A DNA stretch of 48,759 nt, taken from the NCBI RefSeq assembly GCF_004010195.1, contig NC_057754.1:7352434-7401192 (forward strand), given 5' to 3'. The notes beneath the pieces are model-generated. The model ran no database searches and was not told the origin of the DNA. It worked only from the letters and a program-made list of their open reading frames with translations. The DNA is from Chiloscyllium plagiosum. Taxonomy: Eukaryota. Positions 11,293 to 48,665 of this stretch are shown here, in pieces. How positions within the stretch are numbered: the stretch's first letter is position 1; every line of letters starts with the position of its first letter. A program made the position numbers and the translations under genes.

Positions 11293-11334
11293 TTGGTTCT
11301 TATCATTGAGTTGAAACTGGACTCGCCATATAAG

Positions 11335-12769: not shown

Positions 12770-13790
12770 TGTCAGTGCAGCGCTCCCTCAGGACTGACCT
12801 TCCAACAGTGCGGCACTCCCTCAGCACTGATCCTCCGACAGTGCGGCATTCCCTCAGCAATGACCCTCCGACGGTGCGGCACTCCCTCAGTACTGACCTT
12901 CCAACAGTGCGGCACTCCCTTAGTACCGACCCTCCGACAGTGCGGCATTCCCTAAATACTGACCATCCGACAGTGTGGCACTTCCTCAAAACTAACCCTC
13001 CGACAGTGCAGCACTTCCTCAGTACTGACCTTCCAACAGTGCAGCACTCCCTCAATACTGACCCTCCGACAGTGCGGCGCTCCCTCAGCACTGACCCTCC
13101 GACCGTGCAGCACTCCCTCAGCACTGACCCTCTGACAGTGCGGCACTCCCTGAGTACTGACCCTCCGACAGTGTGGCACTCCCTCAGCACTGACCCTCCA
13201 ACAGTGCGGCATTCCCTAAATACTGACCCTCCGACAGTGTGGCACTCCCTCAATACTGACCCTCCGACAGTGCGGCACTCCCTGAGTATTGACCCTCCGA
13301 CAGTGCGGCACTTCCTCAGTACTGACCCTCTGACAGTGCAGCACTCCCACAGCACTGACCCTCCGACAGTGCGGCGCTCCCTCAGTACTGACCCTCCGAC
13401 AGTGCTGGGCTCCCTCAGTACTGACCCTCCGACAGTGCGGCACCCCTCAGCACTGACCCTCCGACAGTGCGGCACTTCCTCAGTACCGACCTCAGTATCG
13501 ACCCTCCGACAGAGCGGCACTCCCTCAGTACTGACCCTCCGACAATGTAGCACTCCCTCAATACTGACCCTCCGACAGTGCGGCGCTCCCTCAGTACTGA
13601 CCCTCCGACAGTGCGGCACTCCCTCAATACTGACCCTCCGACAGTGCGGCACTCCCTCAGTACTGACCCTCGGAGAGTGCAGCACCCCCTCAGTACCGAC
13701 CATCCGACAGTGCAGCATTCCCTCAGTACCGACCCTCTGACAGTGCGGCACTCCCCCAGTACTGACCCACCGACAGTGCCGCACTCCCTC
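12770..13790 (+). repeat. 33-bp satellite (CACTCCCTCAGTACTGACCCTCCGACAGTGCGG)n, about 30 copies
   Basis: Tandem 33-mers; they produce the spurious HSLSTDPPTVR ORFs. Confidence 0.97.
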
Positions 13791-14391
13791 TGTACTAGAG
13801 ATTGAGAGCTGGGTATGTCCCTGCGATGGTGTTACAGGGGGAATGCCTCCAGCTCTTGATCATGCTGACCCCTTGACGTCTGACACACATTGGATCAGGA
13901 GGGATCACTATGGGGTCAGGGCAGGTCAGAGGTCACACCCGCTTGAGCTCATGGAACCTGACAATTAACTCCAGCCCTGCTCTGTACCAAACTGGGCCCA
14001 GTGTTCCCCAGGACAGCAAAATCTGGTTTTAAGAAATCCGTTAGATCGGTGTATACCTCGCCGTACCTGTGTCAGTGTTTGTCACAGATCCTGTCACTCC
14101 GTTAAAGTCAGTGAGGCCTAACATTTGGCCCTCAGGTCTGAAGCAGCTTGCTGTCATTGTCAAACCTCCCTGATGCTCAGAGACAGGCACAGGCTCCCTC
14201 CAGTCATTCTTGGTCTCCCTCCTGTCACACCTCCTCAGTTCACGCGGCCTCTGACAGGCTCTGACATTTCACACTGAAAATGACCTCCTCCTTTTTGCCT
14301 CATCTGGGATCGCGTCAGATTCAGAGCTCCAAACCTGGCCATTCGGCCTATCAAGCTAATGTTGTAGAGATTACATTTGACGTCAACCAGT

Positions 14392-15240
14392 GTCATAGAG
14401 TCATAGAGAAGTGCAACATGGAAACAGACCCTTCGGTCCAACTTGTCCATGCCAACCAGATATCTTAAATTAATCTAGTCCCATTTGCCAGCACCTGGCC
14501 CATATCCCTCCAAACCCTTCCTATTCATATACCCATCCAGATGCCTTTTAAATGTTATCATTGTACCAGCCTCCACCACTTCCTCTGGCAGCTCATTCCA
14601 TACATGTACCACCGTCTGTGTGAAAGATTTGCCCTTTAGGTCTCTTTTATATCTTTCCCCTCTCACCCTAAACCTATGCCCTCTAGTTCTGGATTCCCCC
14701 ACCCCAGGGATAAAGACCTTGTCCAAATACCTATCCATGTCCCTCATAATTTTATAAACCTCCACAAGGTCATCCCTCACCCTCCGACGCTCCAGGGAAA
14801 ACAGCCTCAGCCTGTTCAGCCTCTCCCTGTAGCTCAAACCCTCCAACCCTGGCAACATCCTTGTAAATCTTTTCTGAACGCTTTCAAGTTTCACAACATC
14901 CTTCCAATAGGAAGGAGACCAGAATTGCACGCAATATTCCAACAGTGGTCTAACCAATGTCCTGTACATCCGCAACATGACCTCCCAACTCCTGTACTCA
15001 ATACTGACCAATCAAGGAAAGTCGACCAAACGCCTTCTTCACTATCTACCTGCGACTCTACTTTCAAGGAGATATGAACCTGCACTCCAAGGTCTCTTTG
15101 GTCAGCAACACTCCCCAGAACCTTTTCCATTATAAATCTTGCCCTGATGTGCCTTTCCAAAAGTGCAGCACCTCACATTTATCTCAATTGAACTCCATCT
15201 GCCACTCCTCAGCCCATTAGCCCATCTGATCAAGATCCTG
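14392..15240 (-). mobile_element. CR1 (HER1-like) LINE 3' fragment
   Basis: YRTLVRPLLEYCVQFWSP..LESVQKRFTRMLPGLEGLSYRERL..WNELPEEVVEA; tail CTATGACTCTATGA. Confidence 0.93.
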
Positions 15241-15624
15241 TGGCCCCACATCCCTTTATCCCCTTCTCCCTCGTGTGTTAATCTGTTTCCCTTTTTTACA
15301 GTCTGCACCGTTCGCCTCACAATCTCTGTGGTGGTGAGGTCCTAAGACCGCACCATGATCCGAGTAAAGTCGGAAGCAGTAGAAAAGGCCATTTAGCCCC
15401 TCTAGTATTCTTCATCTTCGATATGATCGTGGTCAATCACATTGTGGCCTGGATCCCCACTCAAACCCAGCCTTGAATGAGTTCGGCAGGTCTCTCTACA
15501 ATGCTCACTGGGGAAGAGAATTGAGAAGACCATCCACCGAAAGAAATTCTCTCCATTTAGGTCGTCACTGGAGCCCCCACCCCCCCCCAACTCCATTCTG
15601 AGACCATCTCTCCTCAAAGAATTT

Positions 15625-16350
15625 CGTCCCTGGGCCTTGAGGAAAACAGGAAGTACAGGAGGGAATTTAAGGAAAGCAATTAAAAGAGCACAAAGGGCAC
15701 ATGAGAAAGACTGGGAGAGGGAGAATCCTGAGGTAATTTCCACACGCAAGAAAGGGGAGTGGTTAACCAGGGGAAAGAGTAGAGCCTGATCAGGGAGCAA
15801 GGGGGCAATCTGTGTGTGAAGCTGCGGGATATTGGAAGGGGGGGGGGGTCGAGCGAATACTGCTCTTCAGTCTTCACTCTGGAAAAGGAGTACTGAGGTA
15901 CGGGATTCAGGACAAGGGACTGCGTGGAACTTGCGCAGTTTGGCACAGGAAATGGGGAAGGTAGTGGTGGCTTTATCGGGCTTACAAACAGAAAATTCCC
16001 CGATGAATTGTATCCCAGGCTGCTGTGGGAGGGTGAGGCAGGGGCTCTGTTGCAAATTTTTAATTCCTCCCTGGTCACGGGGGGGGGGGGGGGGGGGGGG
16101 GGTGAAGGGGGGGATGTACAAGAGGACTGAGGGACAGCTAGCATGGTTCCACTTTTTAAGATGGGTGGTGTAGTGATGAACCTGGAAATTACAGAGTCTC
16201 ATGTCAGTGGTAGGGAAACTATTATAGAAAATTCTGAAGGAGAGAATCGTCACTTGGAATGGAAATGGGTTAATTAGGGATAGTCAGCGCGGCTTTGTCA
16301 GAGTGAAGTCATGCTGAACAAATTTGTTAGCTGATGTATGGATTTCAGCA
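15625..16350 (+). mobile_element. Degraded CR1 ORF2 internal fragment
   Basis: KFPDELYPRLLWE..ALLQIFNSSLVTG (the KSPGPD..PR.L region upstream of RT). Confidence 0.7.
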
Positions 16351-16361
16351 CAAGGTGCCAA

Positions 16362-17492
16362 TAGACAATAGGTGCAGGAGTAGGCCATTCTGCCCTTCGA
16401 GCCTGCACCACCATTCAGTATGATCATGGCTGATCATCCTTAATCAGTACCATGTTCCTGCCTTATCTCCATAACCCTTGATTCCACTATCCTTGAGAGC
16501 TCTATCCAACTCTTTCTTAAATGAATCCAGAGACTGGGCCTCCACTGCCCTCTGGGGCAGAGCATTCCACACAGCCACCACTCTCTGGGTGAAGAAGTTT
16601 CTCCTCATCTCTGTCCTAAATGGTCTACCCTGTATTTTTAAGCTGTGTCCCCTGGTTCGGCACTCACCCATCAGCGGAAACATGTTTCTAGCCTTTTTCA
16701 CTACCTGCTGTNNNNNNNNNNNNNNNNNNNNNNNNNNNNNNNNNNNNNNNNNNNNNNNNNNNNNNNNNNNNNNNNNNNNNNNNNNNNNNNNNNNNNNNNN
16801 NNNNNNNNNNNNNNNNNNNNNNNNNNNNNNNNNNNNNNNNNNNNNNNNNNNNNNNNNNNNNNNNNNNNNNNNNNNNNNNNNNNNNNNNNNNNNNNNNNNN
16901 NNNNNNNNNNNNNNNNNNNNNNNNNNNNNNNNNNNNNNNNNNNNNNNNNNNNNNNNNNNNNNNNNNNNNNNNNNNNNNNNNNNNNNNNNNNNNNNNNNNN
17001 NNNNNNNNNNNNNNNNNNNNNNNNNNNNNNNNNNNNNNNNNNNNNNNNNNNNNNNNNNNNNNNNNNNNNNNNNNNNNNNNNNNNNNNNNNNNNNNNNNNN
17101 NNNNNNNNNNNNNNNNNNNNNNNNNNNNNNNNNNNNNNNNNNNNNNNNNNNNNNNNNNNNNNNNNTCTCTCTCCCATCTTTCTTAAAAAGTGGTACAACA
17201 TTAGCCACCCTCCAATCTGCAGGAACTGATCCTGAATCAATCTTTCGAACTCTGGAAAATAATCACCAACGCATCCACGATTTCCCGAGCCACCTCCTTC
17301 AGTGCCCTGGGATGTAGACCATCAGGCCCTGGGGACTTATCAACCTTCAGACCTAACCGTCTCTCCAACACCAATTCCTGGCAAATATAAATTCCCTTAA
17401 GTTCAGGTCCTTCAGCCACTGTTACCTCAGGGAGATTACTTGTGTCTTCCCCAGTGAACACAGATCTGAAGTACCAATTCAATTCTTCTGCC
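16362..17492 (-). mobile_element. CR1 LINE spanning a 454-N gap (16712-17165)
   Basis: KVDKSPGPDGLHPRALKE..ANVVPLFKK before the gap; RTRGHSLK..FFTQRVVAVWNALPQRAVEA after it, in consistent orientation. Confidence 0.88.
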
Positions 17493-17537
17493 ACATGGGA
17501 GACTGATTGCGAAGGCTAAAGGACACAGAGTTTACTT

Positions 17538-17763
17538 ACTTAGCGTGGAAACAGGCCCTTCGGCCCAACAAGTCCACACCGACCCTCCGAAGAGCAACCC
17601 ACCCAGACCCATTCCCCTACATTTACCCCTTACCTAACACTACGGGCAATTTAGCATGGCCAATCCACCCTAACCTGCACATTTTTGGACTGTGGGAGGA
17701 AACCGGAGCACCCGGAGGAAACCCACGCAGACACGGGAAGAACGTGCAAACTCCACACAGACA
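17538..17763 (-). mobile_element. HE1-type V-SINE
   Basis: Reverse complement of the 43204-43512 copy (V-domain and tail). Confidence 0.88.
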
Positions 17764-17819
17764 GTTGCAAATTACTGGCCGTCCCTGGGTGGGCCTGCAC
17801 CACTAGCCTTTCTGTTAAC

Positions 17820-18830
17820 AGCCTTGAGGGAGATGGAACAGAAACTGGCTTCATAATGGGGTACAAAGGGTAGTGATTGAGTGACTGGAGGCCGGTGTCC
17901 AGCCGTGTTCCACAAGGACCAGCAGTGGGGACCCTTACTGCTTGTTAAACACAGAAATGATGAAAATATGGGGGGGCATGTTAAGCAGGTGGTGCCGAGA
18001 TCAGTAGAGTGGTTAATGGTGAAGAGGTTGGCTGTAGATTACAGGAAGATACAGATGTGTTGGTCAGATGGGGAGATCAGGTGTTTAATCCTGATGAGGT
18101 GCTGCACCTTGGAAGGAGAAAGAAGATGAGGGAGTATTTAACGAATGACAGGACACTGAGGAACAGAGGGATCTGGGGCTAATTATTCACAGATCCCTGA
18201 AGTCGGCAGAGCACATGAACAGGATAGTTAAGGCTTCATGGGACACTTGCTTTCATCAGTCGTGGGTAGAGTATGAGAGCAGGGAAGTAATGTCTGAGTT
18301 ATACAGTGGGTTGGTCAGGCCGCAGTCTGGACAGTTCTGGTCCCCTCACTACAGGACGGAGGTGATCGCACTGGAGGGGGTACAGAGGAGGTTCACCACG
18401 ATGTTCCCTGGGATGGAGACATTGAGCAACAAGGAGAGGGGAGGGGCACATGACTGAGGTGGATACGATTATGAGGGGGATGGACAGGATGAGTAGAGAA
18501 CAGCTGCTCCCCTTGGTAAAGGGGTCAATCATGGGGGGGGGGGCATAGTTTTAGGGTTAAGGGCGGGAGATTCAGAGGGGATTTGGGGATAAACCGTTTT
18601 TCACACAGCAGGCGGTGGGAATCTGGAAGGCACTGCCTGGGAAGGTATTGGAGACCGGAGACCTTCTGACCTTTAGAAAATATTTAGATGAGCGCTTAAA
18701 CTCTCATAACATTCAAGGACGTGCAACAGGAGCAGAAAATTGGGATTAGTGCACCTTTAATGGTAGTTATGTCAGTGCAGGCTCGATAGGCCGAAGGGTC
18801 CTGGCTATGCTGTATGAATCTATGATTGTA
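17820..18830 (+). mobile_element. Degraded CR1 RT and 3' end
   Basis: LVRPQ..QFWSPHYR.EVIALEGVQRRFT.M.PG motifs with frameshifts; TCTATGA tail. Confidence 0.8.
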
Positions 18831-18841
18831 TGAAAATCCTT

Positions 18842-20778
18842 AGAGCATATTCTGTAGAGCATAGAACAAAGAAAATAGAACACAAAGCATAGAGCACAGA
18901 ACAGAGAGCACAGAACAGAGAGCACAGAACAGAGAGCACAGAACATAGAACACAGAACATAGAACACAGAGCATAGAGCACAGAACATAGAGCACAGAAC
19001 ATAGAGCACAGAACATAGAGCACAGAACATAGAACACAAAGCATAGAGCACAGAACATAGAGCACAGAACATGGAGCACAGAACATAGAGCATAGAACAC
19101 CCCTCTGCACCCTCCCACTCCCAGGAATCAATCCCAATGGCTCCCTTGACCTGCAGTGATCCAGTGAAAGGACAGAAGTAAACAGAACAAAGAACATAGA
19201 ACATAGAGCATAGAACATAGATCAGAGAGCATAGAACATAGAGCCCAGAACATGGAACATAGAGCCCAGAACATAGAACATAGAGCATAGAACATAGATC
19301 AGAGAGCATAGAACATAGAGCCCAGAACATGGAACATAGAGCCCAGAACATAGAACATAGAGCATAGATCATGGAGCATAGAACATTGAACATAGAGCCC
19401 AGAACATAGAGCATAGAACATAGAACATAGTGCATAGAGCATAGAACATAGAGCATAGAACATAGAGCATAGAACGTAGAGCATAGAGCGTAGAGCATAG
19501 AACATAGAGCATAGAACATAGAGCATAGAGCATACAACATACAGCATAGAACATAGAGCATAGAGCATAGAACATGGAACATAAAGCATAGATCATAGAA
19601 CATAGAACATAGAGCATAGAGCATAGAGCATAGAACATAGATAAAGAACATAGAGCATAGAGCATAGAACATAAAGCATAGAGCATAGAGCATAGAACAT
19701 AGAGCATAGAACGTAGAGCATAGAACATAGAGCATAGAGCATAGACAATAGAGCATAGAACATAGAGCATAGAGCATAGAACATGGAACATAGAGCATAG
19801 AACATAGAACAAAGAGCATAGAACATAGAACAAAGAACATAGAGCATAGAGCATAGAACATAGACCATAGAACATAGACCATGGAACATACAGCATAGAA
19901 CATAGAGCATAGAGCATAGAACATAGAGATTAGAGCATAGAACATAGAGCACAGAACATAGAGCATAGAGCATAGAACATAGAGCATAGAACATAGAGCA
20001 TAGAACATAGAGCATAGAGCATAGAGCATAGAAAAAGAACATAGAGTATAGAGCATAGAGCATAGAACATAGAACATAGACCAAAGAACATAGAACATAG
20101 GCCATGGAACATACAGCATAGAACATAGAGCATAGAGCATAGAACATAGAGCACAGAACATAGAGCATAGAGCATAGAACATAGAGCATAGAACATAGAG
20201 CATAGAGCACTGAACATAGAAAAAGAACATAGAGCAGAGAACATAGAGAATAGAGCATAGAACATAGAAAAAGAACATAGAGTATAGAGCATAGAGCATA
20301 GAACATGGAACATAAAGCATAGATCATAGAGCATAGAGCATAGAACATAGAAAAAGAACATAGAGCATAGAGCATAGAACATAAAGCATAGAGCATAGAA
20401 CATAGAGCACAGAGCATAGAGCATAGAAAAAGAACATAGAGCATAGAGTATAGAGCATAGAACATAGAACATAGAACATAGAGCATCGAGCATAGAACAT
20501 AGAACATAGAACATAGAACAAAGAACATAGACCATGGAACATAGAGCATAGAGCATAGAACTTAGAGCATAGAGCATAGAGCATAGAACATAGAGCATAG
20601 AACATAGAGCATAGAGCATAGAGCATAGAAAATAGAGCATAGAACATAGAGCATAGAGCATAGAACATAGAGCACAGAGCATAGACCATGGAACATAGAG
20701 CATAGAGCATAGAACTTAGAGCATAGAGCATAGAACATAAAGCATAGAACATAGAGCATAGAGCATAGAACATAGAGC
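18842..20778. repeat. 7-bp satellite (CATAGAG/CATAGAA)n, about 1.9 kb, running into a gap
   Basis: Heptamer periodicity; source of the MLYALCS ORFs; unique island at 19100-19182. Confidence 0.97.
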
Positions 20779-35595: not shown

Positions 35596-35661
35596 CTCCT
35601 CTCTGATGTCTTGCAGGCTCGGGGTGTTACCTTCGTTCACCGCTCCTGACAAACTCTGCAT
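35596..35661 (-). CDS. TMEM151A: Probable first coding exon of TMEM151A (MQSLSGAVNEGNTPSLQDIREE)
   Basis: ATG with A at -3 and an in-frame TGA 12 nt upstream, 22 codons ending ...REE, and a perfect GTGAGT phase-0 donor (35590-35595). TMEM151 first exons end ...REE and exon 2 begins QRP in phase 0. Not in the supplied ORF track. Confidence 0.8.
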
Positions 35662-36087
35662 GATCTTTCTTCAGCCTCCCAGGCACAGGTCCAGCCGAGC
35701 GAAAACGCCATGTGGAAACGGCCAAGTCATTTCCTATCAGGGACAAAAGCTGCCCAGAGGGGGAGCAGGGCGATAGAGATACACAGAGAGAGAAAGAGCA
35801 GCTCCCCTTTCAATCCTCCTTAGTAAAGCACTGTGATCTTACCCTTACAGAGACACACACGGTGTGTATACAAAAGAGCCATCCTGCAGTATTCAGTTCC
35901 AATGAAGCATCTCACATATCCAAGTCTAGTTTTAATGTAAAGCTGAAAGGCATGTTCTAGCAATGGTCTCTGTTTTATATGCAGCACCTTCACTGCAATG
36001 TGTCCCTTTTTATGCATTTAAATCTGAAATTTCTTTGCCTCACCTAGCCACTGACCCCTGTACTCTACAATTTCTGCCTGAAATACA

Positions 36088-36103
36088 TAGCTGACGTCAG
36101 CTA
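36088..36103. promoter_or_regulatory. Full CRE (TGACGTCA) inside a perfect 16-bp palindrome near the putative TMEM151A promoter
   Basis: TAGCTGACGTCAGCTA about 430 bp upstream of the minus-strand ATG; TATA-like TTTAAATA on minus at about 36132-36139; unique sequence. Confidence 0.5.
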
Positions 36104-36214
36104 CCTTGGATACTGTTCCCAGCTCCTGCAATATTTAAAGGGGCAGGCCACGTCGTGATGCTTGTGGGGAACTGGGGGAGAGGAGGCTGCCTCACAACCC
36201 CATCCGGGGATAGG

Positions 36215-36470
36215 TCCAGAGTTTGTTGCCCCACCCTTAATTGCCCCTCTAGAAAGTGGTGGCAAGCCACCTTCATGAACCACTGCAGTCCGCGTGCTGT
36301 GGGTTAGACCCACAATGCCCTTAGGGAGGGAATTCCAGGATTCTGACCCAGCGACACTGAAGGAATGGCCGCTGTGTTTCCGAGTCAGGGTGGTGAGCAG
36401 CTCGCGGGGGATCTTGCATGGGCTCTTGTTCCCCTGTACCTGCAGCTCTTGTACAGGGGCAGCTGGTGGG
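36215..36470 (-). mobile_element. LINE 3' UTR fragment (family of 11335-11925)
   Basis: Reverse complement of about 11700-11910. Confidence 0.75.
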
Positions 36471-36494
36471 GGCTCTTGTTTCTTTTTCATATTG

Positions 36495-36910
36495 GGATCA
36501 TGGAATCCCTACGGTGTGGAAGCAGGCCATTCAGCCCATCAAGTCCACAACGACCCTCTGAACAGCATCCCACACAAACCCCTCCAGCCAATTCCTGTAA
36601 CCATGCATTTCCCATAGCTGATCCACCCTAACCTGCACATCTTTGGACACAATGGGACAATTTAGCACGGCCAATCCACCCTAACCTGCACATCGCTGGG
36701 CACTATGGGACAATTTAGCACAACCAATCCACCCTAACCTGCACATCCCTGGGCACTATGGGACAGTTTAGCACGGCCAATCCACCCTAACCTGCACATC
36801 TTTGGGAGGAACCCTGACAGACGTAGGGAGAGTGTGCAAACTCCTCACAGTCATCCAAAGGTGGAATGGAACCAGGCCCCGTGAGGCAGTAGTGCTAACC
36901 ACTAAGCCAC
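36495..36910 (-). mobile_element. HE1-type SINE with an about 55-bp segment repeated 3-4 times
   Basis: CCAATCCACCCTAACCTGCACATC..GGGACAATTTAGCA in tandem; tRNA head GAGGCAGTAGTGCTAACCACT. Confidence 0.8.
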
Positions 36911-37324
36911 TGTTCACTAAAGGGGCATTAGTGAACCAGGTGTGTTTATATGACAACTAGTGTTCGTTGTCAATGGTCACCATCTCTGAGACCAGTTAAA
37001 TTGCAGATTATTAATTGAGTTTATGCCCAACTTCTTAGACTGGACCACCTTGTAAAGGCCACCTACACTGTCTAGTCGGACATTTGTTAACCCAAGCGGT
37101 TATGGACATTCCCTAGCCCCAGGCAGATCCCTTGAAATGTAATCTCCACCATTTCCCCACTAGAGATGTGAGTCTTCAGAGAAAGCCAGTTCGAATCCAG
37201 GGCTAGCTATTACCAACGGGAACATTCCCCCCACATCCCCACTCCTCCATATCACTCCACAACCCTGCCTCCCACTTTCAAAGATGATATTAGACTACAC
37301 AGAGCACGGAGGGGATGTTAGGAA

Positions 37325-38060
37325 TCATAGAGTCATATAAATGTACAGATCCATCTTGTCCACGCTGACCAGATATCCCTAAGCTAATCTAGTCCCATTT
37401 GCCAGCATTTGGTCCATATCCCTCTAAACGATTCCTACTCATGTACCCATCCAGAAGCCTTTTAAATGTTAGAAGTCACATGACACTGGGTTATAGTCCA
37501 ACAGGTTTATTTGAAATCACAAGCTTTCAGGGCATGCTCCTTCATCAGTCCAACACCAGCATCTCCACATCATGGCCTCTTACATGTTGTAATTGTACCA
37601 GCCTCCACCACCTCCTCTGGTAGCTCATTCCATACACAGACCACCCTCTGTGTGAAAAAGTTGCCACTTAAGTCCTTTTTTAAATCTTTCCCCCTCTCAC
37701 CTAAAACCTATGCCATCTGGTTTTGGGGACAAGATCTTGACTGGTCACCCTATCCATGCCCCACATGATTTTATAAACCTCTATAAGGTCACCCCTCAGC
37801 CTCCGATGCTCCAGGGAATACAGCCCCAGCCTGTTCAGCCTCTCCCTGTAGCTCAAACCCTCCAACCCTGGCAACATCCTTGTAAAGCTTTTCTGAACCC
37901 TTTCAAATTTCACAACATCCTTCCTATAGCAGGGAGTCCAGAATTGAATGCTGTATTCCAAAAGTGGCCTAAACAATGTCCTGTACAGTCACAACATGAC
38001 TTCCTAACCCAATGCACTGACCAATAAAACCAAGAGTACCAAATGCCTTCTTTACTACCC
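37325..38060 (-). mobile_element. CR1 3' fragment with a short Penelope-type insert (about 37470-37580)
   Basis: RPLLEYSIQFWTP..VQKSFTRMLPGLEGLSYRERL; target duplication-like CCTTTTAAATGTT / CCTCTTACATGTT around the insert. Confidence 0.85.
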
Positions 38061-38304
38061 TAATAAAAAAAAGTAAAATTAAGACAAAGTTCATCACTGT
38101 TTAGTTAACTGCACCTGGGTCGGGGGAAGGCCGATTAAGGAACAATGGAATACCCTGAAGACGCAGCTGAGACGAGACTGCCATTCTGGGCCCAGAGCAC
38201 CACGCACGGCCATTGGAACACTGGGCCGGAACCTTCCGCCAAACAAGGCAGCCATGCTGGACCGAGATGACTAGGCCAGGACAAGGCTGCCATGTCCGAA
38301 CTAA

Positions 38305-38765
38305 ATTGCCTTCTCTTCCTTCAGGCGCCCAGGTCTAGATGCAGACCTGGAGCCTCGGCCTAGCCTGTGAATCCGGGCCTAGACCGCCTTTCTCCTCCTT
38401 CAGGCGCCTGGGCCTAGATGCGGATCTGGAGTCTCGGCCTAGCCTGTGATTCAGGGCCTGGACCGCCTTTCTCCTCCTTCAGGCGCACGGGCCTGGATGC
38501 GGATCTGGAGTCTCGGCCTAGCCTGTGATTCAGGGCCTGGACCGCCTTTCTCCTCCTTCAGGCGCACGGGCCTAGATGCAGATCTGGAGTCTCGGCCTAG
38601 CCTGTGATTCTGGGCTTAAACCGCCTTTCTCTTCCTTCAGGCGCCGGGCCTAGATGCGGATCTGGAACCTTGCCCTAGCCTGCGATTCCAGGCCAAGACC
38701 GCCTTTCTCCTCTTTCAGGTGTCTGGGCCTAGGCATGGACCCGGAGCCTCAGCCTAGCCTGCGTG
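38305..38765. repeat. 79-bp GC-rich tandem repeat, about 6 copies
   Basis: CCGCCTTTCTCCTCCTTCAGGCGC..CCTAGATGCGGATCTGGAGTCTCGGCCTAGCCTG recurs at 38463 and 38542 (period 79). Confidence 0.9.
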
Positions 38766-39511
38766 TCTAGGCCGGGGGAGTCAGCCCAGACCTGTTCCTT
38801 GCTCGACAGCAGATCCCGGGCTGGGCTGGGGGCGTTTCCGGTTTGTACTAGCGTCACTGCTGCCAGAGGCCTCCTCCCTCACCTGCCACTCTCCTGACTT
38901 TGAAGAAAAGAAAATGAACAAAAGAAAGGGAAAAAAAGCAAAAGTACAAAACAAAGAAAGAAAACTGACTGGAACGGATGCGTCCCTGTGCTCAGCACCA
39001 CCCTACTCTGCTGCTATCTTGAAATATTAACCAGGATCTCTGGATTAGTAGCTTGGTGATATTACTACAATGCCGCCATTTCCTCCAAGGTCATATCTCA
39101 GATGCCCATTTGCAGGGCCATTTATGTAAAGAAAGGACATCCAGGTTGCTACTCACAACCCAGGAGTGTTTGGCCTGGATCTCTGCAGCCTCTACGATGT
39201 TGTGGTCTATATTGACAGCCATTCTTTTGGCGTGATCCCATTAATTTTTAAAATATTGTGGCTGGGGAGAAAATAGCGGCTTGACTGAGTTTCAAAAGCC
39301 ATCCAATGAGGAGTCAGCTTGCTCTCTGGATGCACAGACTCCATGAGAATGAACAAGCCTGGAAGCCAATCACAGGAGAGTGAGACGGCGATGGTTGACA
39401 ACAGGAGCTGAGTCGTCCAGGTATAGGCCCAAAACAGAATTCACAATGTGATTGGTCAGGCCTGAGTTAGTACCTGCGAAACTTGTTATTTCACTGTGAA
39501 CTACCAGATTC

Positions 39512-40210
39512 ATTCTATATCTAACCCCATGCTGTACCTGTCCTGGATGCATTTGATGGGGACAGTACAGAGGGAGATTGACTCTATCTAATCCTGTGCT
39601 GTCCCTGTCCTGGGAGTGTTTGATGGGGGACAGTGTAGAGGGGGCTTTACTCTGTATCTAACCCTGTCCTGTACCTGCCCTGGGGAGTGTTTGATGGGGA
39701 CAGAATAGAGGGAGCTGTACTCTGTATCTAACCCAATGCTGTCCCTGTCCTGGGAGCGTTTGATGGGGGACAGTATAGAGGGAGCTGTACTCTGTATCTA
39801 ACCCCGTGCTGTCCCTGTCCTGGGAGCGTTTGATGGGGGACAGTATAGAGGGAGATTTACTCTGTATCTAACCCCGTGCTGTCCCTGTCCTGGGAGCGTT
39901 TGATGGGGACAGTATAGAGGGAGATTTACTCTGTATCTAACCCTGTGCTTTCCCTGTCCTAAGAGTGTTTGATGGGGACAGTGTAGAGGGAGACTTACTC
40001 TGTATCTAAGCCTGTGCTGTCCCAGTTCTGGGACTGCTTGATGGGGAACAGGGGAGAGAGAGTTTTACTAAGTATCTAACTCTTTGCTATTCCTATCCTG
40101 GGAGTTTTTGATGCGGGATGGTGTAGAGGAGGCTTTGCTCTGTATCTAACTCCATACTGTCCATATCCTGGGGTTGTATGATGGTGACAATGTAGAGCAA
40201 GCTTTACTTT
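39512..40210. repeat. 69-70-bp satellite (TCTGTATCTAACCCCGTGCTGTCCCTGTCCTGGGAGTGTTTGATGGGGACAGTGTAGAGGGAGCTTTAC)n, about 10 copies
   Basis: Tandem units, degenerating at both edges. Confidence 0.93.
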
Positions 40211-40845
40211 CAGTTTAAAAGTGTACAGAGAGTTTTACTAGTAGATAATTCCGTTATCCGGGCTTACTGTGCCTCCAGTTAAATGACACAGACGATGCCA
40301 AAAATGAATACCTCCCCCCACCTCCCGCTCAACTCATTAGCATTAACCAGTTTTCCGTCATGTAACTCCACGGGGGTTTTGGTGTATGAATGACTCATTT
40401 GAAGCCTTTCAGTCTTGATGTGTCTCTGTCCGGGTTTCAAACTGGTCACGTTCTGACTGCGACTGGCCCTGGAAGTGGTCCCCAGCCAAATCCCTCGCTC
40501 TCAGTCCTGCTCAGTACTTTCAGATCGCACTTTTTCCGGTAATTCTGACTGACTCCATTTCCCGCGCTCCCAACCCCCTCCACCCCCACGGCCTCTTGAC
40601 TGGCTCAATGCCCCAAGAGCTTTGGGTCATCCGGCTAGATCCCAGGGTGGATCCCCCGCTGATCAACAACCACCCGGACCAGAGAGGATCACTGGGCAGG
40701 GTAGGCCAAGTGTGGTGGTGAAGGCGTCTGCAGTGGGATAGCCACTCAACAAGCTGTAGGCTCACGGATGAATTGCGTCCATCTCTCTCTCGCAGTGAAT
40801 GGCTACCATTAATTTTATAATGCACTGTAACACCTCAAAGCAACA

Positions 40846-41169
40846 GCACAGCATGGTGGCTCAGTGGTTAGCACCGCTGCATCACGGCGCCAGGGACCCG
40901 GGTTCAATTCCCGCCTCGGGCGACTGTCTGTTTGGAGTTTGCACATTCTCCCCTTGTCTGTGTGGGTTTCCTCTGGGTGCTCCGGTTTCCCCCCACATTC
41001 CAAACATCTGTGAATTGGCCATTCTGAATTGCCCATAGTGTTAGGTGCATTAGTCAGGGGTAAATATAGGATAGGGGAATGGGTCTGGGTGAGTTGCTGT
41101 TTGGAGGGTCAGTGTGGACTTGTTGGGCCGAAGGGCCTGTTTCCATACTGTAGGGAATCTAATCTAATC
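40846..41169 (+). mobile_element. HE1-type V-SINE, full length
   Basis: A-box/B-box tRNA head (TGGCTCAGTGG, GGTTCAATTCC), V-domain and (AATCT)n tail. Confidence 0.9.
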
Positions 41170-41294
41170 AATAATCAGCAAACATCTTCAGTCCAAGTGA
41201 ATTCAGCCATCTCCTTCCCCTCACCTTAGCCCCATCCTCCAAAGCTGGATCCAATGCACTGAAACTTACCTTCCATTCTTTAAAAAGAGCAAAA

Positions 41295-42492
41295 CTATCG
41301 GAGGGTCAGTACTAAAGGAGCGCCACAATGTCAGAGGGTTTGTACTGAGGGAGTGCAGCACTGTTGGAGGGTCAGTACTGAGGGAGCACTGCAATGTTGG
41401 AGGGTCAGTACAGAGGGAGCACTGCAATGTTGGAGGGTCAGTACAGAGGGAGTGCTGCACAACTGGAGGGTGTGTACTGAGCTGGTGCTGCACTGTTGGA
41501 GGGTCAGTACTGAGGAAGCTCTGCACAATTGCAGGTTTGTAATGAGAGAGCACTGCACTGTTGGAGGGTCAGTGCTGAGGGAGTGCTGCACAGTTGAAGG
41601 GACAGTACTGAAGGAGAGCCGCACTGTCGGAGGGTCAGTACTGAGGGAGTGCCGTACTGACGGAGGGTCAGTACTGAGGGAGTGCTGCACTGTCAGAGGG
41701 TCAGTACTGAGGGAGTGCTGCACTGTCAGACAGTCAGTACTGAGGGAGTGCTGCCCTGTCAGAGGGTCAGTACTGAGGGAGTGCTGCACTGTTGGACGCT
41801 CAGTACTGAGGGAGTGCTGCACTGTCGGAGGGTCAGTGCTGAGGGAGTCCTGTACTGTCAGAGGGTTTGTACTGAGAAAGTGCTGCACTGTCGGAGGGTC
41901 AGTACGATATGGGAGCTGTATTGTCGGATGGTCAGTATTGAGGGAGTGCTGCACTGTCGGAGGATCAGTACGATATGGGAGCTGTATTGCCGGATGGTCA
42001 GTACTGAGGGAGTGCTGCACTGTTGGAGGGTCAGTACGATATGGGAGTTGTATTGTCGGATGGTCAGTAATGAGGGAGTGCTGCACTGTCGGAGGGTCAG
42101 TACGATATGGGAGCTGTATTGTCGGATGGTCAGTATTGAGGGAATGCTGCACTGTGGGAGGGTCAGTACGATATTGGAGCTGTATTGTCGGAGGGTCAGT
42201 ATTGAGGGAGTGCTGCACTGTCGGAGAATCAGTACGATATGGGGGCTATATTGTCGGAGGGTCAGTATTGAGGGAGTGCTGCACTGTCGGAGAATCAGTA
42301 CGATATGGGGGCTATATTGTCGGATGGTCAGTATTGAGGGAGTGCGGCACTGTCGGAGGGTCAGTACGATATGGGGGCTGTATTGTCGGATGGTCAGTAT
42401 TGAGGGAGTGCTGCACTGTCGGAGGGTCAGTACGATATGGGAGCTGTATTGTCGGATGGTCAGTATTGAGGGAGTGCTGCACTATCAGAGGC
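41295..42492 (-). repeat. 33-bp satellite, same family as 12770-13790, opposite orientation
   Basis: (GAGGGTCAGTACTGAGGGAGTGCTGCACTGTCG)n; 66-bp dimeric structure from about 41890. Confidence 0.97.
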
Positions 42493-43203
42493 ATTGACTC
42501 AATCTGCCCTCAGATACAGCCATTAAAGATTCCCGGGGCCTCAATTAGATAAAAGTCAGCAAGTGAAGCAATGTCACACAAATATAAAATCTGGTCATCG
42601 TCACAATGCCATTTGTTGGAGTCTTCTGTGCACCAATTAGCTGCAGCCCCATCTCTCCCCTCCCATATGGCATTAGATGGGTCCACTTCACTGAAGTCCA
42701 CCATTGGCTGTGAATCACTTTGGGGAAGTCCTGAGGTTGTGATAGGCCCTGGAGAAATGCATTAGTCATTCCTCTCTGTCAGTCTGCCATAATTGTCCAT
42801 TTGAGGCATCATTGGGAATTGGCGTCCTGTGCTGGGTTGAGGGGGGGTTGCTGCTGCATTACAAGAGAGGGTGAGAGAGAAATGGTCTTCTTAGGGTCCC
42901 GAGAAATCTTGGCAAGTGTTGAGTGTGCATTGGACAGGCAAGAGAATGGGGAGTGTAGATCAGATGGCCTACTTCAGATTGGGAGGTAAGGAGATGGGAC
43001 ACAGCTTTGAGCTGTTAATTCTGGAACTAATATGAGGGAGAACTTTGGAATAGATATCAACAGACTCCCAGATAGAGCAGAGGGGATATAAACTCTGATT
43101 GTTGGCTGTGATAGTAATCGGCGTGTTTGTCTGATCACCTTAACATGGTTGACACTTGGCTAAAGGAATGATTCAGTCCCATCTGGTATTGTACACCTGG
43201 TAT

Positions 43204-43512
43204 GGGCGGCACGGTGGCACAGTGGTTAGCACTGCTGCCTCACAGCGCCAGAGACCCGGGTTCAATTCCCGCCTCAGGCGACTGACTGTGTGGAGTTTGC
43301 ACGTTCTCCCCGTGTCTGCGTGGGTTTCCTCCGGGTGCTCCGGTTTCCTCCCACAGTCCAAAGATGTGCAGGGTCAGGTGAATTGGCCATGTTAAATTGC
43401 CCGTAGTGTTAGGTAAGGGGTAAATGTATGGGTGGGTTGCGCTTCGGCGGGGCGGTGTGGACTTGTTGGGCCGAAGGGCCTGTTTCCACATTGTAAGTAA
43501 TCTAATCTAATC
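43204..43512 (+). mobile_element. HE1-type V-SINE, full length, little decayed
   Basis: GGGCGGCACGGTGGCACAGTGGTTAGCACTGCTGCCTCACAGCGCCAGAGACCCGGGTTCAATTCCC..(TAATC)n tail. Confidence 0.93.
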
Positions 43513-44189
43513 TATATTGCACCTGTGTGTGTGTGTCAGTGTTAGCTCTTGTACATGTACAGTACGCACTGGCTAAAAGTGTGTGTGTGTGTGTATCTGT
43601 GTTAGCTCCTGTACATGCTAACACAGTAAAAGGGAATGATTCACTCCTATGTGGCACTGTACAGACCTCTGTTTGTGTGTGTATGCCTGTGTGCGTCTCA
43701 CACCTGTTTGACTATTCCCCTTCGGCTACTGATACAGTAGTAAACAAGCTGTCAGGTTTCACTGGGACGAGCTGAATGCAGCCTCTGCCTTCCTGGGGAC
43801 GCACACCAGGGGGCACCAGGCACCAGCTGTTGACTGTGGCTGTCCCACACTGCTTGTTCACAGTGGGCATCTCTGTACTGCTCCTACCTGTGTACTTTCC
43901 AACAGCTCAAGGGACAGGCTGAGGCCATTCAACCCTGCCGGCCTGTCCTGTTTTGCGAATAGATGTTGGCTGATCTGCATCTTTGCTCCATCCAACTGAT
44001 CGGGTTCCACTAATCTTCCATATCCCTGAAAATCTCAACTGTGTGAGGAGAGTGTTTCAGATTTCTCACTCCCCTCTAAGTGGGGATTCTTCCTGACGTG
44101 AAAGATGTTGTAATTTTAAGATTGTTGCACCTCTGGTCTCAGAGGAAACAGCTTCTCTCTGGCAACCTTACCAAATCCTTTAGGGGAAA

Positions 44190-44912
44190 GTGCGCTTCAG
44201 GGGACATCTTTGGGACTCCAGCATCAACCAACCCCACCGCCCCGTGGCTGAACACTTCAACTCCCCCTCTCCCTCCGCCAAGGACATGCAGGTCCTGAGC
44301 CTCCTCCATCGCCAAACCCTCACCACCCAACAACTGGAGGAAGACTAACTCATCTTCTGCCTCAGGACCTCCCCAACCCCATGACATCAATGTAGATTTC
44401 ATCAGTTTCCTCATTTCACTTCCCCCCCACCTTATCCCAGTCCCAACCTTCCAACTCGGCACCGCCCTTCTGACCCGCCCTACCTGTCCATTTTCCTTCC
44501 CACCCTCCTCTCCGACCTATCACCATTATCGCCACCTCCGATCGCACTCTCAGCTACATTCCACCCACCACTACCCCCTCCCATTTATCTCACCATCCCT
44601 CAGCTCACAGCCTTACTCCTGATGAAGGGCTTTTGCCCGAAATGTTGATTCTCCTGCTCCTCGGATGCTGCCTGACCTGCTGTGCTTTTCCAGCACCACG
44701 CTCTTGACTCTAATCCAAATCCTTTAATCATCTCAAATTCCCAGATTAGATTGCATTTCAATCTACTTCACAAACCCAGTCTGTGCAACCCCTCCTCAAC
44801 ATTTAGCCCCCTCTTCCTGATGAAGGGCTCCTCGGATACTGCCTGACCTGCTGTGCTTTTCCAGCAAACACACTCTCAACTCTGATCTCCATCTTCTGCA
44901 GACCTCACTGTC
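44190..44912 (+). mobile_element. Penelope-like 3' fragments (44190-44712 and 44812-44912)
   Basis: Reverse complement of the 31751-32270 segment; terminal CCTGATGAAGGGCT..GATGCTGCCTGACCTGCTGTGCTTTTCCAGC. Confidence 0.8.
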
Positions 44913-45299
44913 TCCCTGCAGTCCCCGGAGCGTTCTATTGAATCCGCACTGCACCCTGCAAGTTGAGTCTGTTCTGCCCGAAGATGCGGTGTCCAGGTTG
45001 AACGTGGTCACTCCCAATGGGTCTCTGCCCAGACCTTTACATCAGCAGGAACAAAACTTCAACACTGTGCAGCACAGAGACAGTCACCCTGAAAGGGGGT
45101 GGGGGGTGGAATGAGAAGCTGCCAGGGAGAGGCCACAGGGAGATGGGGACCCTGCTCAGACTATGCAGAGATAGGCCAAGAGGCACCAACTCTTGAGGTG
45201 AGGTTTGAAATGTGACAGGAGAGGGTATAACTCCCATTCAGCGTGGTGACATATCATATCTAGGGATGGACGGGAAAACACTATATTTACACTGTCAAG

Positions 45300-45480
45300 T
45301 CTCCAATGCACTGCCAAATGAGTTACAGACTGGAATCTAATCGAAGGGTTCAGGGTGGTTTATATGTAGAATAACAGATACCAGGGAGTAAGTTACAGAT
45401 TTGAATCTAATCAAGGTGTTCGAGGTGGTTTATATCTAGAATAACAGATACCTGGGTGTGAGAAACAGACTGGAATCTGT
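45300..45480. repeat. About 66-bp repeat (GAGTTACAGACTGGAATCTAATCGAAGGGTTC..ATATGTAGAATAACAGATACC), about 3 copies, resuming at 46170-46255
   Basis: Tandem units on both sides of the LTR-like insertion. Confidence 0.7.
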
Positions 45481-45486
45481 AGTGAT

Positions 45487-46169
45487 TGTAACAAGGTCAG
45501 CCAGGGGGAACCTCAGAGAATATGAGTTCCCTGATTGGGGCTGTTAATCCAGTCCAATCAGGAAGCCCTGGCTGACAGACAAGATCAGGAGTGTCGAGGG
45601 TTGACTGCCTGCCCCACTTCCGCGGTTACGTTAGAGCCCGGTTATCTCTGGAGAAGGAGTACACGGTGTCCACCAACACCCTTGAGCTGTTCAGGGAGAG
45701 GTGGGTACCGCAGGGAGTGGACTGCACTATTTTCCGTCTAATTCTATTTTTCTTTAACCCCTGCCCTCTCCTTCGCTGTTTGGTCACGCAGCATTGCCCT
45801 TTGATGTGAAGGGCACTGCTTGTCACTGGCCACTTGGGTGTTTCTTTTCCTTCCTGTTGGTGGGAATTAAATAAAGATTTGTACACCTTGGGTCTTTCAC
45901 TGTGTCTCATACCTGCACGCACACAACATAGGTGCTGGGGAATAAATAAGCACTACTGCAGATAGGCGGTAGTGTGGGGAAACAAAAAAAAACAAAAAAA
46001 TCAGGAAAAAAATAAACAGGAGTAAAAAAAATTTTAAAAAGAACAGCAGTGTTAGACTTCCTGTTCACTCTGAGAGCTAGCTCTGAGATCTGGATCAGTG
46101 TCAAGGCCTCTCCACATGTAAATAAAGAGGACTTGGTGACGCTTTACTGGCCTCTGTGGAGTTATTTCA
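45487..46169 (+). mobile_element. Short solo-LTR-like repeat (TG..CA) split by a Tx1-like insertion (45596-46041)
   Basis: Starts TGTAACAAGG and ends AATAAA..GTTATTTCA; the inner Tx1-like 3' end (GYVRARLSLEKE..FRERWVPQGV, poly-A) is flanked by imperfect CAGGAGTGTC / CAGCAGTGTT. Confidence 0.65.
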
Positions 46170-46364
46170 GAATTTAATCAAGGGATTTCGGAGGGGGTTA
46201 TATATAGAATAACACATCACCCAACTGTGCGTTATAAACTGGAATATATTCGAGGCGCTCAGATTTAACCTTTAACAAGCTTACACAAAGGAACCGCATT
46301 AGCCCTTCGGATCTATCCCATCATTCACCCTACCTCGAAATCGATTATTTTCTTAATTCCAGGT

Positions 46365-47572
46365 GCTTTGAATGGATGGTGGATGTAGGTACAATTACAA
46401 CATTTCAAAGACATTTGGATAAGTACATGAACAGGAATGGTTTGGCGGGATATGGGCCAAACACAGGCAAGTGGGACTAGTTTAGTTTGGGAAACATGAT
46501 AAGCATGGACTAATTGGACCGAATGTATGACTGCATGTCGTGTGACTCTATGGGAAATCTTCCAGGCATTGACAAGGAGAGGTAAATCAGGTCCAGAGTA
46601 TAAGAGAGAGAGAGAGAGAGTGCAGAGGCTAAACAGGAGCACTGAAGGCAGTCGAGAGAATGTGCAAACAAAACCTGCCCAAAACGGAGTGACTTCCAGG
46701 ACATTGGTTAGACCACTCCTGGAATATCGTGTCCAATTCTGGTCCCCCAGCTATAGGAAAGATATCGTTAAACTTGAAAGGGTTAAAAAAAGGTTTACAA
46801 GATGTTGTCGGGGTTGGAGAGAGTATAAGGAGAGGCTTAATAGACTGGGGACTGTTTTCCCTGGAGCGTTGGATGCTGAGGGGTAGTCTTATAGAGGTTT
46901 ATAAAATCATGAGAGGTATGGATATGGTGAATAATCAAGGACTTTTCCCCAGAGTAGGGGAGTACAAAAATAGAGGCCATCCATTCAAGGTGAGAGGGGA
47001 ATGGTATAAAAGGGACCTAAGGGGCAACATTTTCATGCAGAGGGTGAAAAAGTTGAGGTGCATGCATTTAAGGTGAGAGGGGAAAAGTTCAAAGGAGATG
47101 TGAGGCATAGGTCTTTTTAGACAGAGAGTGGTAGAAGTCTGAAATGTGCTGCCAGGGCTGATGGTGGAGTCAGGTATAATTGGGACGTTTAAGGGATTTG
47201 TAGATAAGCACATGAGTATGCAAGGAATGTAGGAATATGGACCAAGATTAGTTTATTTTGTGATCAAGTTCGGCACAACATCGTGGGCTGAAGGGCCCGT
47301 TGCTGTGCTGTATTGTTCTATGTTTTACGTCTTTTCCCTAGGGCAGGGGGGTCCAAACCTTGAGGGCACAGGTTTAAGGTGAGAGGGGGAAAAATTTAAA
47401 AGGTACCTAAGGGGCAACTTTTTCACAAAGAGGGTGGTGCATGTATGGAATGAGCTGCCAGAGGAAGTGGTGGAGGCTGGCACAATCACAACATTTAAAA
47501 GGCATCTGGATGGATACATTAATAGGAAGGGTTTAGAGGGATATGGGCCAAATTTTGGCATATGGGAATAAA
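46365..47572 (+). mobile_element. Cluster of CR1 3' fragments (46365-46550, 46700-47325, 47330-47572)
   Basis: RTLVRPLLEYRVQFWSPSYRKD and repeated RGH.FKVRG..WNELPEEVVEA segments. Confidence 0.88.
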
Positions 47573-47876
47573 TTACAGTAATTTAGGGATGTCTGGAGTT
47601 GGGAGTGAATTGAATTGAATTGAATTTATTGTCATGTGTACCGAGGCACAGTGAAAAGCTTTGTCTTGCGAGCAATACAGGCAGATCACAGAGTTAAGTA
47701 GCATAGATAAGTAAATAATAGGTAAACAGCGGCAAAAACAAAAACACAGGTACAGGCGAATGTTAAGAGTTTGAGAGTCTATTCGGTATTCTAACAACAG
47801 TAGGGCAGAAACTGTTGTGAAACTGGTTGGTGTGTGTTCCGCTGCACAATGATCCGGAGTGTTGGACAAAATTGAA

Positions 47877-48017
47877 AATCACACAACACCAGCTTATAAT
47901 CCAACAGGTTTATTTGGAGGCACTGCCTTTCGGAACGCCGCTCAGATGGCTAGCTCCGAAGGCTAGTGCTTCCAAGCAAACCTGTTGGGACTATACAGCC
48001 TGGTGTTGTGTGTGATT
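47877..48017. repeat. Inverted repeat (Penelope-type hairpin) about 320 bp upstream of the IkB ATG
   Basis: AATCACACAACACCAG..CCAACAGGTTTATTTGGA..TTCGGA pairs with TCCGAA..TCCAAGCAAACCTGTTGG..CTGGTGTTGTGTGTGATT. Confidence 0.75.
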
Positions 48018-48333
48018 ATTAAATGAAGTCACTGCTGGTTGCAGTGAAGTTGTTTGTTATTGGGAGTGTGTGTGTTTGTGTCAGACAGTGTGTGGTTTGC
48101 AGTGAGTTAATTCTAAAGGAGGCAGGTTTGTGGTACAGTCAGTGCATTAAAAGGGAAGGGAAGGGAAGGCAGCCTGCCTTTGCCTTTAAGTGTGCAGCCA
48201 GCCCAGAGGAGGAGGGTCTGAAGGACAGAGAGTTGCAGGCTGTGAAGGCTGGACTTGTGTCAGTTTGAGGAAAGAGGACAAGTCTCTCCAAGCCTGCTCC
48301 TGGTGATAGATAAATAACAAGGCCCCCTGAGCA

Positions 48334-48665
48334 ATGGCAGTGAGCCCAGGCGGGGACACCAAGGGCCTGCAGCTCCCCGACTCCCAGTGTGACTCTGGCC
48401 TGGATGGGGAGCTGGAGCGCCAGGAGCCCTGGGCCCTGAGCCTGGGCCTGGAGCCGGGGACGGGGACAGGGGCAGGGGCAGGGGCGGCCCCGGGCCCGGG
48501 CCCTCAGTGCGGGGCCTCCGGGGAGGACAGCTGCGACTCGGCCTACGCCTCGGACTTGCTGGAGACGTTCAGCGCTCGTTGCTCGCTGGGCTCGGCCGGG
48601 GGACAGGCCCCGGGCCCTGAGGCTCCCTTCGACCCCTGGGCCTACCTCAGCGAGGAGGGGGACAC
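48334..48665 (+). CDS. NF-kappa-B inhibitor (IkappaB family, epsilon-like), first coding exon
   Basis: GCAATGG Kozak context, GC-rich exon, DSQCDSGLD and CDSAYAS motifs (compare IkB-epsilon ESQYDSGIES and ADSTYGS). Ends AYLSEEGDT at the start of ankyrin repeat 1 with a phase-2 GTAAGT donor, the conserved IkB first-intron position. Confidence 0.85.

Follow-up and report, generated by a model that had tools for sequence, protein, structure and literature searches.

Canonical inhibitors of NF-κB (IκBs) mask the nuclear localisation signal of Rel proteins; IKK phosphorylates their DSGxxS motif, SCF-βTrCP binds, and the inhibitor is degraded (PMC6027159). One of them, IκBε (gene NFKBIE), has no defined PEST sequence (PMC3009747), and in trout its gene lies next to 'tmem15b' and slc35b2 (PMC10299181). 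Another degron, DSAYGS, is that of NF-κB2 p100, where it is phosphorylated by IKK1 (PMC6027159; PMC10317156, Table 1), and the accessible parts of both sources use it for p100 only. Here we describe a stretch of 48,759 nucleotides from Chiloscyllium plagiosum (contig NC_057754.1 of RefSeq assembly GCF_004010195.1, positions 7,352,434 to 7,401,192 of the forward strand; hereafter the window), which carries the first coding exon of an IκB gene that we call ε2, arranged divergently with a TMEM151A gene. We found that ε2 belongs to a distinct clade that extends across sharks, rays, bichirs, and salamanders and is not shark-specific. The gene is very probably an ancient sister copy of NFKBIE. We also consider it likely that the whole description holds, namely an exon 1 facing TMEM151A in a probable whole-genome-duplication sister of NFKBIE, the product of which is predicted to retain NF-κB and to be degraded upon a signal.

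The described protein with which ε2 is best compared is IκBε. Both have N-terminal serine motifs, an IκB-type ankyrin domain (about 45-55% identity), a C-terminus without PEST, a second serine motif of the form DSxYxS, and a linked TMEM151 gene. Unlike IκBε, ε2 forms a separate clade, differs in nine diagnostic columns, is linked to TMEM151A rather than TMEM151B, has no DSGxxS, is found beside NFKBIE in the same genomes, and is absent from the list of mammalian IκBs. IκBα and IκBβ share with ε2 the canonical IκB layout and fold (the model described below matches 1nfi and 1oy3/1k3z), whereas their similarity to ε2 is much lower (145 and 117 bits), and ε2 has neither the acidic PEST tail nor DSGxxS.

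The 111 residues translated from ε2 exon 1 are all identical to residues 1-111 of P0005 (XP_043538669.1), a C. plagiosum RefSeq protein of 358 amino acid residues from a 13.66-Mb sequence, labelled 'IκB epsilon-like'. With the exon 1 peptide as query, a search of longer proteins matched four from sharks that bear the name 'NF-kappa-B inhibitor epsilon-like'. The gene's ankyrin exons lie past the end of the window, and the ankyrin data are those of P0005 and not of the window. In the AlphaFold model of P0005 (predicted template modelling score, 0.67), the predicted local distance difference test value was >90 over most of the ankyrin region, and the N-terminus was disordered. A fold search with this model gave Bcl-3 (1k1a) and IκBα-NF-κB (1nfi, 43% identity) at the top, and also IκBβ (1oy3/1k3z). 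Pfam ankyrin domains were found on the ε2 orthologs, as for an IκB-type ankyrin-repeat domain; the ε2 product, as modelled, has the IκB-type ankyrin fold.

Among the best 120 of 436 homologs, a close set from elasmobranchs showed 61-96% identity and another set about 42-53%, the latter including a second protein from the same sharks. In a mixture-model tree of the ankyrin domains, 15 ε2 rows were separated from 20 NFKBIE rows with support of 100/99, and both clades contained chondrichthyan, ray-finned, and lobe-finned members. The same split was obtained with 25 rows (99/99), without salamanders (100/100), and without bichirs (98/97). The approximately unbiased (AU) test rejected a duplication in chondrichthyans only (p 0.010) as well as one in salamanders only (p 0.0007). 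Because members of all three groups occur in each clade, and because the AU tests reject these alternatives, we place the duplication before the split between sharks and bony fish. Nine alignment columns are diagnostic, being common to 16-17 of 17 ε2 proteins and found in at most two of 23 NFKBIE proteins. That the ε2 clade joins independent NFKBIE duplicates of sharks, bichirs, and salamanders through long-branch attraction is hardly credible: long branches lead to the salamander and bichir proteins, and a warning from the tree tool noted that they meet, but each long group stayed with shark ε2 after the other had been dropped, the AU tests rejected both lineage-specific groupings tried, and the nine columns and the linkage to TMEM151A are common to the clade.

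We found ε2 in at least 21 named species: 16 elasmobranchs, Lissotriton, Pleurodeles, Ambystoma, Polypterus, and Erpetoichthys. This number is a lower bound; divergent ε2 proteins rank below ordinary NFKBIE in both of the large searches, and the salamander and bichir members were added through cluster look-ups. No chimaera ε2 was among the matches listed. A first-pass annotation of the window had proposed an extra IκB gene kept in cartilaginous fish; the 16 elasmobranchs bear this out, but a confinement to cartilaginous fish does not stand, as salamanders and bichirs keep ε2 on a TMEM151A-bearing sequence. Both paralogs were found in nine species (seven elasmobranchs and two salamanders). In C. 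plagiosum itself, P0258, a partial NFKBIE model from a 138-Mb sequence, falls in the NFKBIE clade, and ε2 is not the sole NFKBIE of the species. With this coexistence, a clade separate from mammalian, teleost, and shark NFKBIE, and TMEM151A as its neighbour, ε2 is not the NFKBIE ortholog proper.

Assignment to the ε type was examined by phmmer. Against seven IκBε ankyrin domains, P0005 scored 231-294 bits; against IκBα, IκBβ, and Bcl-3 from the PDB, it scored 144.8, 116.9, and 111.4 bits, respectively. Of the canonical IκBs, IκBβ scored lowest with ε2 of shark (116.9 bits), newt (100.7 bits), and bichir (107 bits). The ε2 C-terminus ends LCPFDDVRLLGQPVV, which is aligned with the C-terminus of IκBε, and has no PEST tail; the C-terminal PFDD..L.G.PV and the DSxYxS motif are common to ε2 and IκBε. 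An Atlas search placed IκBε first and IκBβ third with near-equal scores, and did not discriminate between them. Scores, motifs, and synteny support the ε assignment; IκBα, IκBβ, and Bcl-3 are more distant by score. Judged by the lowest score among canonical IκBs and by the missing PEST tail, ε2 is not an NFKBIB ortholog, in agreement with the first-pass annotation, although this result comes from scores and not from a tree.

It is very improbable that ε2 is a divergent ortholog, or a copy, of NFKBIB or NFKBIA that moved beside TMEM151A. Such an origin could account for the 'alpha-like' RefSeq labels in Cetorhinus (P0010) and the bichirs (P0375/P0432), and it gains some room from the facts that α and β are outside the tree and that a separate shark NFKBIB was not seen; the low IκBβ scores, the ε-type C-terminus without a PEST tail, the presence of the second motif, and a neighbour, TMEM151A, that is the paralog of the neighbour of NFKBIE all argue against it. 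Moreover, no IκBβ label occurred among the best 120 homologs, and the sole 'alpha-like' protein there groups in ε2. Database names of ε2 proteins are inconsistent: P0008, P0009, P0013, P0010, and P0375 are called plain 'epsilon' or 'alpha-like'.

In the analysis of linkage, two proteins were scored as lying on the same sequence when the longest sequences carrying them had equal listed lengths, and the count covered the species with both proteins listed; four ε2 species were outside it. By this measure, ε2 and a protein of the TMEM151A cluster were on the same sequence in 16 of 17 species (12 elasmobranchs, three salamanders, and Polypterus). In C. punctatum, S. canicula, S. torazame, axolotl (XP_069500977-981 and ...982), and Pleurodeles, the two proteins have RefSeq numbers that follow one another directly or almost directly, which indirectly suggests that ε2 and TMEM151A are adjacent. 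NFKBIE and TMEM151B were on the same sequence in five species (newt, sterlet, echidna, swift, and pika; the lungfish value is a cap and was excluded from this count). Human NFKBIE is head-to-head with TMEM151B. On chromosome-scale sequences of elasmobranchs, ε2 lies on sequences of 7-81 Mb and NFKBIE on those of 120-202 Mb. Duplicated vertebrate chromosomes are known as large/small pairs, and the asymmetry between the ε2 and NFKBIE chromosomes fits such a pairing.

The first-pass annotation had taken the locus for the sister copy of an ancestral TMEM151-IκB pair, and the ε2 clade, the linkage to TMEM151A, and the AU tests together support this. The ancestral IκBε-TMEM151 pair would have been duplicated as a block before the jawed-vertebrate radiation, most simply in the second genome duplication. 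The products would be NFKBIE-TMEM151B on a large chromosome and ε2-TMEM151A, which in sharks is usually on a small one; ε2 would then have been lost several times with TMEM151A retained. Mammals appear to have lost ε2, judging from published accounts of which IκBs they have. It is improbable that, in the jawed-vertebrate stem, an ancient segmental event rather than a genome duplication copied the IκBε-TMEM151 block. We tested only two linked gene families, TMEM151 being the one neighbour family among them, and the trees date the event merely before the shark/bony-fish split, both of which suit a segmental event; the chromosome-size asymmetry, on the other hand, fits the large/small pairing, and the wider paralogy between 6p21.1 and 11q13 includes many other paralog pairs.

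Several points weigh against an origin of ε2 as the genome-duplication sister of NFKBIE. Two genes cannot separate a segmental duplication of equal age from a genome duplication. IκBα, IκBβ, and jawless-fish IκB are absent from the tree of ε2 and NFKBIE, which is thus not properly rooted for sisterhood. When three distant, metagenome-derived ankyrin domains from invertebrate p105/Relish-like NF-κB served as outgroup, the root fell inside NFKBIE, an implausible position; the AU test still allowed a monophyletic NFKBIE, as the expected root would give (p-AU 0.31). Equal sequence length indicates the same chromosome and not adjacency, and is weak evidence for salamander chromosomes of 1.2-1.5 Gb. 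In Mustelus, the exception in the linkage count, ε2 and TMEM151A are on different small scaffolds. Finally, bichir ε2 gave 151.5 bits against IκBα, inside its range against NFKBIE (151-175 bits), and is labelled 'alpha-like' in RefSeq (P0375/P0432); against other ε2 proteins it gave 211 bits, which is higher than against IκBα or NFKBIE. From the metagenome scan came a teleost-like NFKBIE fragment, p105/Relish-like genes of invertebrates, and generic ankyrins, and nothing else. The representative search was dominated by long ankyrin proteins; its best 150 contained ten new IκB-sized proteins (nine NFKBIE-like and one bichir ε2), none of them IκBα or IκBβ.

We then consider how the ε2 product may act. 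In the protein of the window, two degron-like motifs precede the ankyrin domain (Table 1), and K10, upstream of DSGLDGE, is the sole lysine before that domain. D68 and S69 of the second motif are invariant in alignment A1 (27 proteins). In all 15 shark and ray ε2 proteins the second motif has the form DSAYxS, and in eight of them it is exactly DSAYGS, the hexamer found at residues 865-870 of p100; the window protein has DSAYAS. The likeness is one of sequence; in ε2, unlike in p100, the motif precedes the ankyrin repeats and belongs to a free-standing IκB. The salamander and bichir ε2 proteins have a single site, DSGFL(D/E). In βTrCP degrons, an acidic residue can take the place of the second serine (PMC10317156), and the acidic last residue of DSGFL(D/E) fits this broader consensus.

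The second motif was also present in all seven chondrichthyan NFKBIE matches and in 100/100 from bony vertebrates, the latter being the best matches to a motif-bearing query, so that 100/100 may be inflated. DSGxxS occurred in none of the seven chondrichthyan and in 66 of the 100 bony-vertebrate matches. In terms of sequence, DSxYxS is a trait of the ε family. Six shark NFKBIE proteins (P0016, P0019, P0027, P0028, P0033, and P0257) have two DSSYGS and no DSG (6/6), and the chimaera NFKBIE P0018 retains DSGLVES.

From these motifs, the ε2 product would retain NF-κB dimers in the cytoplasm until its N-terminal motifs are phosphorylated. The ankyrin stack (approximately residues 105-345) would mask the nuclear localisation signal of RelA or c-Rel dimers; IKK would phosphorylate DSAYAS (S69/S73), and perhaps S21 in DSGLDGE; SCF-βTrCP would ubiquitinate K10, and the proteasome would remove the inhibitor. 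We regard a cytoplasmic inhibitor degraded upon a signal, mainly via the second motif, as the probable function. One observation speaks against degradation of the usual kind: the textbook DSGxxS occurs in 0/15 shark and ray ε2 proteins. A lysine acceptor upstream of the degron is present in the window protein (K10); only 8/15 shark and ray ε2 proteins have a lysine among the 16 residues that precede the first DS. The altered motifs suggest degradation kinetics unlike those of textbook IκBs. It is conceivable, though unlikely, that with the same history ε2 became a signal-resistant, stable inhibitor through decay of DSGxxS. Apart from the missing DSGxxS, DSG is kept in 11 of the 15 shark and ray proteins and wholly missing in the other four, as such decay would have it; but DSAYxS is kept throughout, with the exact p100 degron in eight, an acidic residue can stand for the second serine, and shark NFKBIE also lacks DSGxxS (0/7), so the loss is not special to ε2. 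As a signal-degraded inhibitor, ε2 could also be one of four canonical IκBs at the origin of jawed vertebrates, of which the ε pair really depends on the second, p100-like DSxYxS degron and not on DSGxxS, a proposal that we offer as speculative and rather doubtful. If true, a p100-type site, possibly under NIK-IKKα, would govern the degradation of shark ε2 and NFKBIE, and an overlooked conserved degron would exist in mammalian IκBε. In any case, a p100-like serine motif conserved over IκBε proteins can be tested in mammalian cells.

In three runs from three studies (X1, X17, and X19), contigs cover approximately positions 48170-48667 with a word depth of 30-78. They stop matching at 48667, at the ε2 donor, and continue for 380-1700 further bases off the window; a break at this place is the pattern of a spliced transcript and suggests that ε2 is transcribed and spliced. 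The start of the 5' untranslated region in Table 1 comes from these contigs only, which cannot prove a true transcript start. Against this use of the contigs, the three runs lack an RNA record, and the contigs differ from the window by two substitutions and, within a repeat-like stretch, by 6-24 bases, and may thus come from alleles or relatives. The raw single-cell run X20 reached only about 1× depth on ε2 exon 1 and was not used as evidence. The stretch at 48426-48505 encodes a length-variable linker, rich in Gly, Thr, Ala, and Pro, between the two degron-like motifs; it is 6-24 bases shorter in the run contigs and six residues shorter in C. punctatum. Just 5' of ε2, short repeats at 47600-48000 attract many poly(A)-ended reads of other genomic origin. 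One strict pattern detected no κB consensus site in the 21 kb before the ε2 ATG, a result that proves little.

The neighbour of ε2 is TMEM151A. All 22 residues encoded by its exon 1 are identical to the N-terminus of C. punctatum P0124 (tblastn E 1.6e-8), and the same 22 residues start the TMEM151 models P0250, P0246, and P0249 (the species set being C. punctatum, Hemiscyllium, Rhincodon, and Stegostoma). In a TMEM151 tree of 34 rows, made by a quick method, rooted with a third coelacanth paralog, and with human TMEM151A not among the rows, exon 2 of the window fell in a 20-row TMEM151A clade, apart from 13 TMEM151B rows, with a support of 100 in the Shimodaira-Hasegawa-like approximate likelihood ratio test. 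This clade contains TMEM151A of newt, caecilian, anole, turtle, and teleost. The gene has two coding exons, groups with tetrapod TMEM151A, and is TMEM151A, not TMEM151B; the first-pass annotation had named it correctly. Human TMEM151A likewise has two exons, at 11q13.2 (PMC11250761). Given the position in the tree, the shark proteins are misleadingly called '151B-like' in RefSeq. Several proteins labelled TMEM151B(-like), namely P0137, P0129, P0131, P0133, and P0152, cluster with TMEM151A; P0218 (Latimeria si:dkey-13p1.4), a third TMEM151 paralog, is outside both the A and the B clades.

The ATGs of ε2 and TMEM151A are divergent and 12,673 bp apart, as the first-pass annotation had read them, with no N gap from 21279 to the window end. 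No intervening gene was seen: none of the 60 open reading frames (≥65 amino acids) between the two ATGs reached the Pfam cut-off, and two gave weak sub-threshold matches. With a distance of 12.7 kb, the divergent order does not demonstrate a shared promoter. The acceptor of TMEM151A exon 2 is in tandem (5207-5212, AAG CAG CAG), and the exon may start at 5209 or 5212. Isoform pairs that differ by one residue are annotated in C. punctatum (500/499 amino acids) and in salamanders (487/486 amino acids), and this alternative acceptor seems to be conserved.

Exon 2 of TMEM151A is on the strand opposite to exon 1, in a segment bounded by scaffold gaps (Table 1). The segment is probably misoriented in the scaffold, wholly or partly, an inversion that we infer. 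P0248, the C. plagiosum RefSeq model of TMEM151, has 28 different N-terminal residues that are absent from the window; they are probably spurious, and such an N-terminus is expected if the annotator was unable to reach the true exon 1. No overlap between the flanks of the gaps was found that would orient the segment, and the last exon of GPHA2 was not found by pattern on either strand of the window, so that GPHA2 gave no orientation of the middle segment. We judged a real inversion breaking TMEM151A to be unlikely; both exons are intact and match the colinear C. punctatum model at 98-100% identity. The head-to-head order of ε2 and TMEM151A is independent of the inversion of this segment.

As regards novelty, ε2 apparently represents an undescribed fourth canonical IκB lineage, with a function predicted from its sequence. 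The proteins are already in RefSeq under automatic names only. We found no description of an ε2 paralog in the literature covered, which left out most subscription journals, and the main text of the whale shark genome paper does not mention NFKBI. A study of ohnologs mentions 135 that are retained in sharks (PMC13450315); its main text and one supplement do not mention NFKBI, and its online tables may list the pair. Ohnologs kept in basal vertebrates and lost in mammals have the same kind of history as ε2, which differs from them in surviving also in bichirs and salamanders. Retained ohnologs are common in sharks, and this limits the surprise. Nevertheless, where textbooks give three canonical IκB lineages, the ancestral NF-κB circuit of jawed vertebrates would gain a fourth. 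The labels 'epsilon', 'epsilon-like', and 'alpha-like', and 'TMEM151B-like' for the neighbour, confuse orthology in immune and regeneration data from shark, bichir, and axolotl. As axolotl, Pleurodeles, and Polypterus are laboratory animals, the function of ε2 is directly testable.

Table 1. Features located in the window (positions counted from its first nucleotide)
Feature	Position	Strand	Remarks
Glycoprotein-hormone alpha-type exon	562..744	+	Pfam Hormone_6 E 2.9e-5, 24.4 bits, just below the cut-off of 25
Segment between scaffold gaps	2494..20778		Flanked on each side by a 500-N scaffold gap; either end consists of tandem repeats
TMEM151A coding exon 2	5209..6648	+	Pfam TMEM151 PF14857 E 5e-209; strand opposite to exon 1
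TMEM151A coding exon 1	35596..35661	-	ATG 35661, 22 codons to 35596, donor GTGAGT
Probable ε2 5' untranslated region	48172..48333	+	Contigs of runs X19, X1, and X17 start matching at 48172, 48197, and 48209
ε2 coding exon 1	48334..48665	+	ATG 48334, 110 codons plus two bases, phase-2 donor GTAAGT after 48665; encodes the N-terminal signal-response region and the beginning of ankyrin repeat 1
First degron-like motif, DSGLDGE (residues 20-26)	48391..48411	+	Second serine of DSGxxS missing
Second degron-like motif, DSAYAS (residues 68-73)	48535..48552	+	Resembles the p100 degron DSAYGS

The hormone-type exon at the left end of the window, presumably of GPHA2, resembled the common alpha chain only weakly (E 0.05-0.3), and no further GPHA2 exons were found in the window. 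Among the 80 longest of the 143 open reading frames outside the interval 35596-48665, Pfam gave one reverse-transcriptase match. A decayed long interspersed nuclear element (LINE) at 26788-28378 (+) contains a reverse-transcriptase fragment (Pfam RVT_1 E 1.1e-14), and many shorter LINE 3' fragments are scattered throughout the window. A 7/14-bp tandem array of about 1.9 kb (18856-20778) lies against a gap, with stop-free frames of up to 518 codons on the minus strand. A 33-bp minisatellite family occurs at 12773-13796 and at 41294-42491, in opposite orientations and with long stop-free frames.

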